Below are positions 1,275 through 53,109 of a stretch of DNA of 64,000 nt, piece by piece; position 1 is the first letter of the stretch, and each line of letters starts with the position of its first letter. The position numbers and the translations under genes are program-made. This DNA is from a virus (lineage: Duplodnaviria > Heunggongvirae > Uroviricota > Caudoviricetes). The DNA is taken from IMG/VR virus record IMGVR_UViG_3300023371_000069, one strand, 5' to 3'. Under the pieces are notes generated by a model, which had not been told where the DNA came from, did not search any database, and was given only the letters and a program-made list of their open reading frames with translations.

Positions 1275-1302
1275 TGATTTTTTTATAAAAAATTTGTATA
1301 AT
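1275..1302 (+). promoter_or_regulatory. sigma-70-like promoter (TTGATT, 16-17 nt spacer, TGnTATAAT), member of a repeated promoter family
   Basis: ttgatttttttataaaaaatttgtataat directly upstream of the RBS/ATG at 1337. Confidence 0.6.
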
Positions 1303-1336
1303 ATATTATAAAGAAAAGTAAAGGAGAATTTCCACC

Positions 1337-3853
1337 ATGGCATATGATGAGCGTTATGAAAATGGTAATTCTATGAGACAGAAGGACTTGGTCCTGGCTA
1401 CCAATGAGTTTTGTTTCCTTCAGAATAAAACAAACGGTCAGATTAAGACCTATTCTGGCCCTATTATGCTGACAATTTCTCAGCAGGAGAGTCTAGTAAT
1501 CTTCGATTCCAAGACTAAGCAGTTCCGTGAAGTTTCCAACTTCGACCAGGCAAAGCAGTTATTCGTTTCTGCTCCAGAGAACTGGTATGTAATTCTTAAG
1601 AACCCCGCACCTGGCGACAAGTATCCCGAGCAGGGTAAGGCAGTACTGTCTCCCGACCTGGAAATCGGCCGCAAGATTAACCTGCGTGGTCCTATCAACT
1701 TCTCCCTGTTCCCCGGTCAGATGTACAAGGTTATTCGCGGTCACGCACTGCGTTCCAACCAGTATCTTCTGGCAAGAGTTTACGAAGCAGAAGCTGCTTC
1801 TAAGAGCCAGGGTGAAATGCGTGACGCCGAGGGTAATGTGATTACCAAGACCAATACTACTTATGTAAATGGTCAGATTTTGGTTATCAAGGGTACTGAG
1901 GTTTCCTTCTACATTCCTCCTACTGGTATTGAAGTTATTCCTGTAAATAACGATGACAGTAAGGGTTATGTGCGCGAGGCCGTTACTCTGGAGCGTCTAG
2001 AGTACTGCATCTTGAAGGACGAGGACGGTAACAAGCGTTATGTCCACGGTCCCGAAGTTGTGTTCCCCAAGCCTACTGAAACTTTCGTAACCAGCCCCAA
2101 GGGCGGTTATATCTTCCGTGCTATCGAGCTGTCTCCTATCTCCGGTATTTATGTCAAGGTTATCGCAGAGTATAAGGACGACGATGGTACCGTACATCCC
2201 ATCGGTGAGGAAATGTTTATCACTGGTAAGGATACTATGATTTATTATCCTCGCCCCGAACACGCTATCATCAACTATGATGGTAAGCTGACTCACCACG
2301 CAATCGCAATTCCCGAAGGTGAAGGCCGCTACATTATGAACCGTTTGACTGGTGTTATCAACACTGTCAAGGGCCCTGCTATGTATCTACCTGACCCCCG
2401 CACTGAGGTTGTTGTTAAGCGTAAGCTGAGCGAGAACCAGTGCGCACTGTGGTATCCCGGCAACCGTGCTGTTCTGGAGTACAATGTTGGTCTAACTGAA
2501 AAGGCTGTTGAGAAGTCTGCGGCTGCTTCTATGAACTTCGTTGATTCTCTGACTGCATATGCAACTGCTACTTCCAGTGCTTCTACTCTGGCAAACCTGG
2601 AAGCTAAGGCAAATATCTCTCGTGGCACTTCCTACACTAAGCCTCGTACTATCACTCTTGACACTAAGTTTGATGGCGTCGTAAGCATTGATGTATGGAC
2701 CGGTTATGCCGTCAATGTTATCTCCAAGGATGGCCAGCGTAAGGTGGTCTGCGGTCCTCAGACTGTTCTGCTTGACTATGACCAGGATTTGGAGCGTCTG
2801 GAGCTGTCTACTGGTCGTCCTAAGACCACTGATAAGTTGATTAAGACCGTTTACCTGCGTCACGAGAACAATAAGGTTTCTGACCTTATCAATGTTGAGA
2901 CCAAGGACTTTGTCCGTGCTACTGTCAAGGTCAGCTACTGTGTTGACTTCGATAAGGCAGATATGGACAAGTGGTTCGCAGTTGACAACTATGTCAAGTA
3001 TCTGTGTGACCGTGTTCGTTCTCTGTTGAAGCGTGCCGCTAAGGATTACACCATCTACGACTTCTATCAGAATTATTCTGATATTGTTCGTAATGTAACT
3101 CTGGGTATTGACCCTGATGCCGAGTGCGATGGTGAGCATGGTAAGCATCACAACCACCGCTACTTCCCCGAAAATGGTATGTTCATCCATGACGTGGAAG
3201 TTCTGAGCATCGATGTTCAGCGCGATGTTGAGGATATGATTCTTGACAAGCAGACTGATATGATTCGTCAGGTTCTGGAACTGGCTGACGCACAGCGTGA
3301 AGCTGAGATTGCTGAAGCTCTGGCTGTTGCCGAGCAGAAGAAGCAGGAACTGCGCACCCAGGAGCTTATCAATAAGATGGCTCTCCAGAAGCAGGAAGCT
3401 GAGACCAAACTGCAGATTCAGGCTGAAATCAACCGCCGCCAGGAGGCTGAGGACAAGGCTAAGAAGCAGGCTGAGGTCGATATGCAGGTAATGGTAGATG
3501 CTTTGGCTGCGGCAAGCCTGGCTCGTGAAAAGGCTAAGCACGATGCTACTATGGAGCGTCTGGCTGCTGAAAATGCGGCTGCTGAGGCTCACGAGCGCAA
3601 CATGGCAGACATTGAAGCTGCTAAGCAGAAGGCATATGCCGAGACTGTACAGAGCATCATGGCTTCCATCACTCCTGACCTGATTGCGGCTCTTGAAGTC
3701 GGTGGCAAGGCTGATATGATGGAAACTCTGGCTAAGCATATGAGCCCCTACGCTATGGCTAAGGGTGAGAGCGTTGTTGAGGCAACTCAGAAGCTGGTGA
3801 ACGGACTTCCCTTCGATTTGAAGGAAGTTATGAGCCAGTTCAGCGCTCACTAA
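1337..3853 (+). CDS. major vault protein (MVP) homolog: repeat domains, shoulder (SPFH-like) domain, C-terminal cap-helix coiled coil
   Basis: 838 aa. Blocks AVNVISKDGQRKVVCGPQTVLL, LELSTGRPK, SDLINVETKDFVRATVKVSYCVDF and FPENGMFIHDVEVLSIDVQRD align with the metazoan MVP shoulder region ([72 protein letters not shown]). A long A/E/K/Q coiled coil and a terminal IAALEVGGKADMMETLAKHM block (cf. [21 protein letters not shown]) follow. Monocistronic, with its own promoter and terminator. Confidence 0.8.
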   Translation: MAYDERYENGNSMRQKDLVLATNEFCFLQNKTNGQIKTYSGPIMLTISQQESLVIFDSKTKQFREVSNFDQAKQLFVSAPENWYVILKNPAPGDKYPEQGKAVLSPDLEIGRKINLRGPINFSLFPGQMYKVIRGHALRSNQYLLARVYEAEAASKSQGEMRDAEGNVITKTNTTYVNGQILVIKGTEVSFYIPPTGIEVIPVNNDDSKGYVREAVTLERLEYCILKDEDGNKRYVHGPEVVFPKPTETFVTSPKGGYIFRAIELSPISGIYVKVIAEYKDDDGTVHPIGEEMFITGKDTMIYYPRPEHAIINYDGKLTHHAIAIPEGEGRYIMNRLTGVINTVKGPAMYLPDPRTEVVVKRKLSENQCALWYPGNRAVLEYNVGLTEKAVEKSAAASMNFVDSLTAYATATSSASTLANLEAKANISRGTSYTKPRTITLDTKFDGVVSIDVWTGYAVNVISKDGQRKVVCGPQTVLLDYDQDLERLELSTGRPKTTDKLIKTVYLRHENNKVSDLINVETKDFVRATVKVSYCVDFDKADMDKWFAVDNYVKYLCDRVRSLLKRAAKDYTIYDFYQNYSDIVRNVTLGIDPDAECDGEHGKHHNHRYFPENGMFIHDVEVLSIDVQRDVEDMILDKQTDMIRQVLELADAQREAEIAEALAVAEQKKQELRTQELINKMALQKQEAETKLQIQAEINRRQEAEDKAKKQAEVDMQVMVDALAAASLAREKAKHDATMERLAAENAAAEAHERNMADIEAAKQKAYAETVQSIMASITPDLIAALEVGGKADMMETLAKHMSPYAMAKGESVVEATQKLVNGLPFDLKEVMSQFSAH

Positions 3854-3865
3854 TTAAAAATTTCT

Positions 3866-3895
3866 AAGGGATGGGGCAACCCATCCCTTTTTTGA
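3866..3895 (+). terminator. rho-independent terminator
   Basis: aagggatgg-ggcaac-ccatccctt hairpin followed by a T-run. Confidence 0.7.
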
Positions 3896-3920
3896 TTTTT
3901 ATAAAAAAATATGTTATAAT
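3892..3920 (+). promoter_or_regulatory. sigma-70-like promoter of the repeated family (TTGATT-17-TGtTATAAT)
   Basis: ttgatttttataaaaaaatatgttataat. Confidence 0.65.
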
Positions 3921-52570: not shown

Positions 52571-52571
52571 T

Positions 52572-52596
52572 CGTAGCTAACTACAAGTTAGCTACG
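52572..52596 (+). other. perfect 11-bp stem-loop between nrdD and nrdG without T-run (possible RNA processing or attenuation element)
   Basis: cgtagctaact-aca-agttagctacg. Confidence 0.4.
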
Positions 52597-52620
52597 CTCA
52601 TACGAAAGGAGTAAATTCCC

Positions 52621-53103
52621 TTGAATTATAGTGGTTTAATTTTAAATGATATTTCTGCGGCCCCCGGTCTTTGTGTGAGCTTTTTTACACAAGGCTGTCC
52701 GCATAGATGTAAAGGCTGCCATAATCCAGAAACTTGGGATTTCAACCGAGGAAAAGAATTTACTACTGGGACTTTAAATGAGATTATTTCCGGACTGACC
52801 GCCCAGGGTATACAGAGAAATTTGTGTATCATGGGCGGTGAACCTCTTTGTGACGAAAATGCTTTCCTTACCTATTTGGTAGTCAAAGAGGTTAAAGAGA
52901 AAGTTCCAGGAGCAAAGATATATATCTGGAGTGGTTATACATATGAACAACTACAACACGCAAGTCATCCTCAAGTGCGGCATGCGCTAGAGCTTGCGGA
53001 TTACCTAATTGATGGTCCTTATATTGAAGAAGAGCGTGATATTACTCTTGAAATGAGAGGTTCACGTAATCAGAGAATAATTGACTTATCTAAAAAAAAT
53101 TGA
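52621..53103 (+). CDS. nrdG: anaerobic RNR activating enzyme (radical SAM), TTG start
   Basis: CPHRCKGC radical-SAM cluster motif; AAAGGAG then TTG. The N-terminus aligns with NrdG only when started at the TTG. Confidence 0.75.
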   Translation: MNYSGLILNDISAAPGLCVSFFTQGCPHRCKGCHNPETWDFNRGKEFTTGTLNEIISGLTAQGIQRNLCIMGGEPLCDENAFLTYLVVKEVKEKVPGAKIYIWSGYTYEQLQHASHPQVRHALELADYLIDGPYIEEERDITLEMRGSRNQRIIDLSKKN

Positions 53104-53109
53104 TATAAT
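53081..53109 (+). promoter_or_regulatory. sigma-70-like promoter (TTGACT-17-TGaTATAAT) overlapping the nrdG 3' end
   Basis: ttgacttatctaaaaaaaattgatataat. Confidence 0.55.

Follow-up and report, generated by a model that had tools for sequence, protein, structure and literature searches.

The window analysed here, a stretch of 64,000 nt from the uncultured tailed-phage record IMGVR_UViG_3300023371_000069, carries 15 near-identical elements of about 40 bp, TTGAyT-N17-TATAAT, and the question that this locus raises is what reads them. The original prediction had described a promoter cassette whose conservation goes well beyond what sigma-70 needs, and had suggested recognition by a phage factor or use as a dispersed recombination or packaging signal. 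We conclude that the elements are most likely near-consensus promoters of the host sigma-A/sigma-70 type which would serve the early and middle operons of a Firmicute gut phage. The promoter interpretation is upheld by the anatomy of the copies, their orientation and their proximity to start codons, whereas neither the phage factor nor the packaging role is supported.

A weight matrix derived from 149 distinct cores of the family separates exactly 15 sites in the window, all of them on the plus strand and none on the minus strand, with scores of 16-51 bits against a top score of 9.9 bits in shuffled sequence; the fifteen-copy cassette is thereby confirmed. The elements start at positions 1274, 3892, 7318, 11484, 13373, 17228, 22636, 28833, 30879, 31141, 34242, 36654, 43957, 45476 and 53081 (the first had been placed at 1275), a density of 15 copies in 52 kb. 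A search for TTGAYT-N14-TGNTATAAT with up to two mismatches gave 20 matches where 2.9 were expected, a number attained in none of 100 shuffles. The looser pattern TTGA[CT][TA]-N-TATAAT was found on the plus strand of the window 17 times at a spacing of 17 nt and not once at spacings of 14-16 or 18-20 nt; in related loci 247 of its 259 matches had the 17-nt spacing, with all other spacings combined accounting for 12. Two sites matching the looser pattern, 33770 inside the recoded DHFR gene and 54110 inside a small recoded open reading frame (ORF), are not members of the family, being below the matrix threshold and having spacers that are not A/T. The pattern as first written, with 17 nt followed by TGnTATAAT, has no match at all, and the 17-nt distance between the -35 and -10 hexamers is correct once the TGn is counted inside it. 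The invariance of this spacing stands, while the single 16-nt copy that had been reported was not found; in the copies at 1274 and 30879 it is the TG that lies one base nearer to the -10 hexamer. The 48-mer quoted at the time is the exact sequence of the copy at 3892. Scans of the window for tRNAs and Rfam families gave no match, so the elements are not RNA genes.

All 15 elements are co-oriented with the genes and lie 16-65 nt 5' of a start codon that has a Shine-Dalgarno sequence. The predicted leaders, 16-38 nt long with one of 65 nt, are AG-rich and contain AAGGAG-type motifs upstream of the gene in every case. A terminator is found directly or at most 30 nt upstream of five copies (3892, 7318, 11484, 22636 and 36654), and the statement that the cassette usually follows right after a terminator is true for these five only; at least seven of the copies without a terminator run up to or into the stop codon of the gene before them. 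The absence of the element from the minus-strand block was borne out, and this block proved to be structural and TAG-recoded.

TTGA and TATAAT are invariant across the window copies, as is the 17-nt spacer (15 of 15 in each case). In the -35 hexamer the fifth base varies between T and C, with T as the sixth in 13 copies and A in two; TGn is in register in 11 copies and off by one base in two more, and a pyrimidine-purine (Y-R) context occurs at the seventh nucleotide past the -10 hexamer in 12. Aligning the copies and building a logo, as had been proposed, was done with 196 unique sites, drawn both from the window and from contigs related to it, and the extended -10, the AT-rich discriminator and the purine-rich leader all proved conserved. 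The logo has a sharp 5' edge at the first T of the -35 hexamer and no conservation upstream of it. T is dominant at positions 5-8, positions 9-10 are nearly free and A is dominant at positions 11-17; then follow T18 (0.91), R19 (0.79), T20 (0.96), G21 (0.90) and, after one unconstrained base, TATAAT. Past the -10 hexamer there are six bases that are almost exclusively A/T; a pyrimidine stands at position 34 (0.93) and a purine (0.94) at position 35, the seventh base past the -10, and the following 15 or so bases are 85-95% purine, leading into AAGGAG and the start codon.

When these blocks are set beside published promoter data, every one of them corresponds to a known feature of strong Firmicutes housekeeping promoters. 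A 2025 survey of the mapped promoters of 49 bacteria, combined with saturation mutagenesis, describes a 17-bp spacer of four regions, which begins with a T-rich tract by the -35 and continues through a stretch of low signal and a second A/T tract to a G/TG region, and reports that the spacer alters promoter strength up to 600-fold (PMC12641261). The same survey reports a discriminator that is AT- or AG-rich and conserved in Terrabacteria, a 3-bp start element YRY (YRR in Terrabacteria) with an optimum 7-8 bp past the -10, and an AG-rich initial transcribed region in Firmicutes (PMC12641261). TRTG is the -16 consensus of Gram-positive promoters, to which a stabilising effect on the open complex has been ascribed (PMC6570832, citing Voskuil and Chambliss). 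As a whole the element looks like the optimum for the Firmicute housekeeping holoenzyme. The contention that its conservation exceeds the needs of sigma-70, and hence calls for a phage factor, is not supported, as the extra positions are known auxiliary features of housekeeping promoters.

On this basis sigma region 4 would recognise TTGAyT, region 3 the TRTG/TGn of the -16 element and region 2 TATAAT, across a spacer of the optimal 17 bp, and the T-tract/A-tract spacer together with the AT-rich discriminator would favour binding and melting. Transcription would start at a purine 7 nt past the -10 in a Y-R context, and the short, unstructured AG-rich leader would bring AAAGGAG to the start codon. 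The hairpin terminators before about one third of the copies would insulate the units from each other, the units served being predicted to comprise accessory and NAD (nicotinamide adenine dinucleotide)-metabolism genes, nucleotide metabolism and DNA replication.

IMG/VR yielded 61 stretches with the exact 35-mer of the near-identical class I copies; they come from about 35 contigs, the longest of 192 kb, and each contig has many copies. Between the coding DNA of these relatives and that of the window, identity is 65-87%. Comparison of orthologous positions showed class I cores to be 0.87-1.00 identical, with coding sequence at 0.60-0.88 and the upstream 40 nt at about 0.5-0.7. Orthologous class II cores, the hexamers apart, drift to 0.72-0.74, which means that the exact spacer sequence is not obligatory and that the tract pattern is. 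Across the family an upstream fold below -10 kcal/mol occurs in 38% of copies versus 9% of controls. Outside this family the element was not encountered: a megablast of cultured phages gave no match, a full-text literature search for the element sequence found none, and the exact class I 35-mer is absent from Enterococcus phage H1, phAss-1, the kayviruses and the literature searched. A scan of genome contigs with a 29-mer (loci L062-L101) returned only contigs of metagenome-assembled genomes (MAGs) from herbivore or ruminant gut, some of them 138-176 kb long, and no isolate genome. These MAGs are labelled Clostridia, Bacteroidales, Alistipes, Treponema, Methanobrevibacter, Alphaproteobacteria, Nanosyncoccus and others, a taxonomy so contradictory that the contigs are evidently mis-binned phage and no host is identified by them.

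Promoter sets of the same kind are found in other phages of Firmicutes. The cultured Enterococcus phage H1 (OP534061, L104) has nine promoters with TTGAC[T/A] or TTGATT, a 17-nt spacer and TATAAT, in its plus-strand replication block only; their spacers start T-rich and have ATGn before the -10, several have a taattataaagttaaataaggagg leader, and several copies then carry a taattataaagttaaataagg leader. In phAss-1 (OQ749652, L102) there are three near-identical copies of TTGACAtaaaaaaatttttRTGnTATAAT. No descriptions of the H1 and phAss-1 promoter families were found, as far as we searched. The early genes of Staphylococcus kayviruses have been described as having highly similar canonical promoters (PMC8952766). 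Taken together, these sets indicate that it is usual for a large Firmicute phage to have uniform early promoters of the consensus type; those of the window are ordinary and well precedented, with nothing conceptually new about them.

Several points weigh against reading the elements as host-type promoters. That host RNA polymerase binds the elements, where transcription would start and that it would be early are inferred from the sequence, and the exact 29-mer is in phage-like contigs of MAGs with inconsistent taxonomy and in no isolate bacterial genome. An exact 35-mer with 34 specified bases, kept over about 35 IMG/VR contigs, exceeds what the preferences of RNA polymerase alone demand. The logo is biased towards class I, since the class I 35-mer was the probe that brought in the related loci, and the window is only part of a phage genome, so that a regulator or a sigma factor may be encoded elsewhere. 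For the near-identity of class I the best explanation is that selection has favoured maximal strength and that whole promoter/leader cassettes have been copied, for which an extra factor is unneeded.

Taken in order along the plus strand, the copies and their terminators are arranged as follows. Copy 1 (1274..1312, 29.0 bits) has TTGATT-17-TATAAT with the TG shifted by one base and precedes the gene for a protein resembling the shoulder of major vault protein (MVP) at 1337-3853. The exact 35-mer is present in copy 2 (3892..3930, class I, 48.7 bits), which heads an operon of nicotinamidase-like, phosphoribosyl pyrophosphate (PRPP)-type, YqeY and Sir2 genes and whose -35 is entered by the T-tail of a predicted intrinsic terminator hairpin at 3866..3889 (-18.7 kcal/mol). 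Copies 3 (7318..7356, class I, 50.7 bits) and 4 (11484..11522, class I with one spacer change, 49.1 bits) each adjoin such a hairpin, at 7289..7317 and 11461..11483 respectively, and lead into the NAMPT, NadE and NADAR operon and into NMNAT-like and phosphoesterase genes. Copy 5 (13373..13411, class I, 49.4 bits) adjoins the upstream stop and is followed by AAA_33, phosphoesterase and flotillin-like genes; copy 6 (17228..17266, 16.5 bits), the weakest match, with GGG for TGn, precedes a small ORF and a PIN-PhoH gene. The topoisomerase II subunit genes follow copy 7 (22636..22674, 39.3 bits), about 30 nt upstream of which lies an intrinsic terminator at 22575..22604. Both copies with TTGACA flank the NAD-dependent DNA ligase gene: copy 8 (28833..28871, 33.3 bits) overlaps the end of the upstream gene and precedes the ligase, and copy 9 (30879..30917, 30.6 bits) adjoins the ligase stop codon and precedes a 63-aa ORF. 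The longest leader, 65 nt, belongs to copy 10 (31141..31179, 39.3 bits) ahead of a 91-aa gene with a weak winged-helix signal, and copy 11 (34242..34280, 43.9 bits) overlaps the end of the DHFR gene and leads into winged helix-turn-helix, YorF-like and YorG (Sak4)-like genes. In copy 12 (36654..36692, 27.9 bits; YorH, DnaB, YorJ and RecJ genes) the -35 lies within a terminator stem, the 3' arm of the intrinsic terminator at 36628..36658 holding its TTGAT. Copy 13 (43957..43995, 41.2 bits) precedes a small ORF and a RecD-like helicase gene, copy 14 (45476..45514, 38.4 bits) the YorL-type DNA polymerase gene at 45538-49500, and copy 15 (53081..53119, 40.1 bits), which overlaps the end of the NrdG gene, the genes from 53143 onwards, including dUTPase and RuvC-like genes.

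The plus block (1-56 kb) encodes the MVP-shoulder-like protein, NAD-metabolism enzymes, a flotillin-like protein, PIN-PhoH and a multidomain lysin (M15, amidase_2 and SH3 domains), as well as topoisomerase II subunits, NAD-dependent ligase, ThyA, DHFR, a Sak4-like protein, DnaB, RecJ, a RecD-like protein, a 1320-aa polymerase of the PolIII-alpha type, NrdD, NrdG, dUTPase and RuvC. At 38% identity the polymerase matches YorL of SPbeta-type Bacillus phages as well as Enterococcus phages H1 and VRE9 and the gut phage phAss-1, the gene order YorF-YorG-YorH-YorI-YorJ-YorK-YorL is retained, and the layout of H1 is alike, with a plus-strand replication block that meets a tail-fibre block converging on it from the minus strand. 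The window thus belongs to a large TAG-recoding phage that is distantly SPbeta-like and probably infects Firmicutes of the herbivore gut; the pointers to this type of host are the kinship with SPbeta and the Enterococcus phages (polymerase and YorF-YorL order), the prediction that phAss-1 infects Clostridia, and the lysin domains. When in-frame TAG is read as Gln, as in a code 15-like scheme, the genes for GIY-YIG (9 TAGs), DHFR, RecJ/YorK, a guanylate-kinase-like protein and RuvC become intact. The recoded genes are at 31573-32565, 33748-34245, 40782-42518, 49708-50277, 53909-54162, 54946-55431 and 56048-56647 on the plus strand and at 59098-59580, 59820-63347 and 63367-63957 on the minus strand, so recoding also occurs in the plus "early" block and not just in the structural block. 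The minus-strand ORFs at 59820-63347 fuse under this code into one tail-fibre-like protein of 1175 aa, which marks their block as structural and late. No suppressor tRNA was found in the window.

Other features of the window concern its cargo and its minus-strand leader. A dense NAD-metabolism module lies under class I promoters at 3946-12438 on the plus strand and comprises a nicotinamidase-like isochorismatase, a PRPP-type phosphoribosyltransferase, YqeY, Sir2, NAMPT, NadE, NADAR and an NMNAT-like nucleotidyltransferase; we presume that it resembles phage NAD+ reconstitution pathways of counter-defence. The product of 1337-3853 (plus strand) is an 838-aa protein with MVP shoulder and Vault_3 domains whose position varies among relatives and which is about 41% identical to proteins of uncultured huge phages of 460-735 kb, and 15599-17107 (plus strand) encodes a separate SPFH/flotillin-like protein of 502 aa; both genes are unusual phage cargo. 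The GC content is 0.42-0.48 over 1-18000 (one 2-kb window at 0.38) versus 0.35-0.42 over 18000-64000, which suggests that the GC-richer part, with its accessory genes and all class I copies, is a horizontally assembled accessory region. The plus block and the minus-strand structural block meet at a bidirectional terminator with a 16-bp stem (56654-56690). Past a minus-strand terminator at 59807-59770 there is a non-coding leader of about 200 nt on the same strand, within which 59609-59730 contains GGTCCT three times, at intervals of 55 and 66 nt, and GGTCCC once; GGTCCT occurs only 18 times in the whole window on both strands, and this leader may serve as a regulatory site for late genes or as an RNA element.

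Of the other explanations, the one that survives best adds a second role to the promoters. They may also act as mobile regulatory cassettes like the promoter early stem-loops (PeSLs) of T4-type phages, which mediate modular shuffling (PMC2839356, PMC4122927; Arbiol et al., 2010; Comeau et al., 2014), with homologous recombination between copies inserting, deleting or swapping the genes that they flank; we regard this as a serious possibility of somewhat less than even likelihood. The MVP-like gene lies between the copies at 1274 and 3892, and in relatives L020 and L074 it is missing from this place and its neighbours g02 and g04 lie side by side, while the same gene occurs at other positions among dense promoter copies in L057, L044, L016, L031 and L077. 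At the right junction of this gene the terminator resembles the cassette version in L057 and the leader and following gene resemble the resident version in L020, which places the breakpoint inside the copy at 3892; the left junction of the replacement, however, is not at a promoter in L020. About 2.6 kb of L050 are absent from L059, L002 and L010, with homology stopping just past a shared terminator and promoter, and the gene content between the copies at 11484 and 13373 differs among relatives. All class I copies, moreover, are in the GC-richer accessory region at 1-14 kb. When the related genomes, compared as fragments, were scored for BLAST breakpoints there was no enrichment, with 0.6 per promoter junction versus 0.5 per other gene junction; the stem-loop is present in only 5 of 15 copies, and copies also precede conserved core replication genes. 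The suggestion of a dispersed recombination signal has some support from two cassette differences with a breakpoint inside a promoter copy, but breakpoints showed no overall enrichment at promoters. A role in recombination is plausible and, if real, would be a by-product of the repeats and not their primary function. Slightly more tentative still is the wider proposal that promoters and terminators together are the Gram-positive-phage counterpart of the T4 PeSL, the identical 35-45 bp cores serving as recombination points. Accessory and counter-defence genes (MVP-like and NAD-salvage genes) would in this way be exchanged between the TAG-recoding gut phages related to SPbeta, and each gene would bring a ready strong early promoter along.

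It is also conceivable, but in our estimation unlikely, that spacer and discriminator form the operator of a global phage regulator which switches the units together. The model for such a system is SPbeta, of which the phage is a distant relative and whose master repressor, MrpR, binds the element SPBRE, repeated over about 10 promoter regions (PMC10516654). In the SPbeta regions that we extracted SPBRE reads CAAATACAAAAAATATGTATATA, contains the inverted repeat ATACA-N7-TGTAT and is placed upstream of, inside or downstream of the promoters; in PyorE/PyonP it overlaps the spacer and the -10 as AAAAAATATGTATATAAT, one base longer than the class I AAAAAATATGATATAAT. There is also a 12-bp palindrome, TTTTTATAAAAA, in the class I spacer, and two small winged-helix proteins are encoded at 31241-31516 and 34315-34668, downstream of the copies at 31141 and 34242. 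The ATACA-N7-TGTAT repeat, however, is absent from the elements, the part common to SPBRE and class I is largely TRTG and the -10, and the best matches of the 15-bp SPBRE motif in the window, at 1285 and 17212, have two mismatches. The spacer motif occurs only in its fixed promoter register, with none elsewhere in the search outside promoters. Class II argues in the same direction, its copies having differing spacers in which the T-tract/A-tract/TRTG pattern is retained, and its orthologous spacers being those that drift to the core identity of 0.72-0.74. A tblastn search with YopR, covering the window and related loci of about 0.6 Mb in total, gave no homologue of YopR/MrpR; a search of the window and related loci for YopR/MrpR, YonO, AimR and small SPbeta regulators found none, with only YorF-YorK matched.

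Recognition by a phage-encoded sigma factor or phage RNA polymerase in place of the host holoenzyme is very improbable. The copies are highly uniform and have TTGAyT instead of TTGACA at the -35, and SPbeta-type phages encode an RNA polymerase of their own, YonO. The -35, the spacing, TRTG and the -10 are nonetheless those of the housekeeping consensus, from which the motifs of known phage sigma factors and phage RNA polymerases are clearly distinct; no sigma factor or RNA polymerase domains were detected in the scanned proteins of the window or in the loci, YonO gave no match, and the elements are absent from the structural block, where a phage polymerase would be expected to act. With a motif that is housekeeping consensus and no such gene seen, we consider this less likely than an operator. 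That the elements are packaging, replication or site-specific recombination signals, as might be imagined of a dispersed repeat family of high identity, has next to no probability given that they are strictly confined to one strand and to the fronts of genes, with a short and constant distance to Shine-Dalgarno and ATG, that there are 15 copies in 52 kb and that all information is in the -35, -16 and -10 positions, and for packaging in particular nothing speaks in favour.

As host-type promoters, the elements map the transcription units of a phage lineage that is uncultured, suggest that its host is a Firmicute and mark the genes that are probably expressed by host RNA polymerase right after injection, including the module that resembles NAD salvage or counter-defence. 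The 35-mer is a specific DNA tag which retrieves the phage family from metagenomes and reveals mis-binned phage contigs in MAGs. The promoters and their ribosome-binding sites might provide compact strong parts for Gram-positive or clostridial engineering, and if the PeSL-like role is true, promoter-mediated modular shuffling extends past the T4-type phages.

The comparison with known systems can be drawn at four levels. Among described systems, the T4 PeSL comes nearest to a combination of terminator, strong early promoter and Shine-Dalgarno sequence that recurs along a phage genome. Like the T4 PeSL, as defined in PMC2839356, the element is a repeated strong host-type early promoter between an upstream stop and a Shine-Dalgarno/ATG; in both, the promoter may be fused to a terminator hairpin, copies number in the dozens per genome and flank accessory genes, and some differences between related genomes are bounded by copies. 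The differences are that the lineage here is an unrelated SPbeta-like siphovirus of a Gram-positive host, that the stem-loop is present in about one third of copies and always upstream of or overlapping the -35, that there is no AT-rich upstream region, and that copies head core replication operons too; the PeSL of T4-type phages is in addition marked by excised mini-circles with one chimeric cassette. With SPBRE the family shares the character of a repeated A/T-rich element in promoter regions and a partial resemblance, AAAAAATATG...TATA; the register is variable and an inverted repeat is present in SPbeta, whereas here the register is fixed and there is no repeat. The likeness to Firmicutes sigma-A promoters with a -16 TRTG extends over the TTGA-type -35, the 17-bp four-region A/T spacer, TRTG, TATAAT, the AT-rich discriminator, the Y-R start 7 nt past the -10 and the AG-rich leader. 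The elements differ in being much more uniform than host promoter sets, in having mostly TT or CT and not CA as the last two bases of the -35, and in showing no UP-like A/T-rich conservation upstream of the -35. H1, phAss-1 and the kayviruses, related or analogous phages of Firmicutes, have uniform early promoter sets like the window phage, with each lineage having a spacer sequence of its own.

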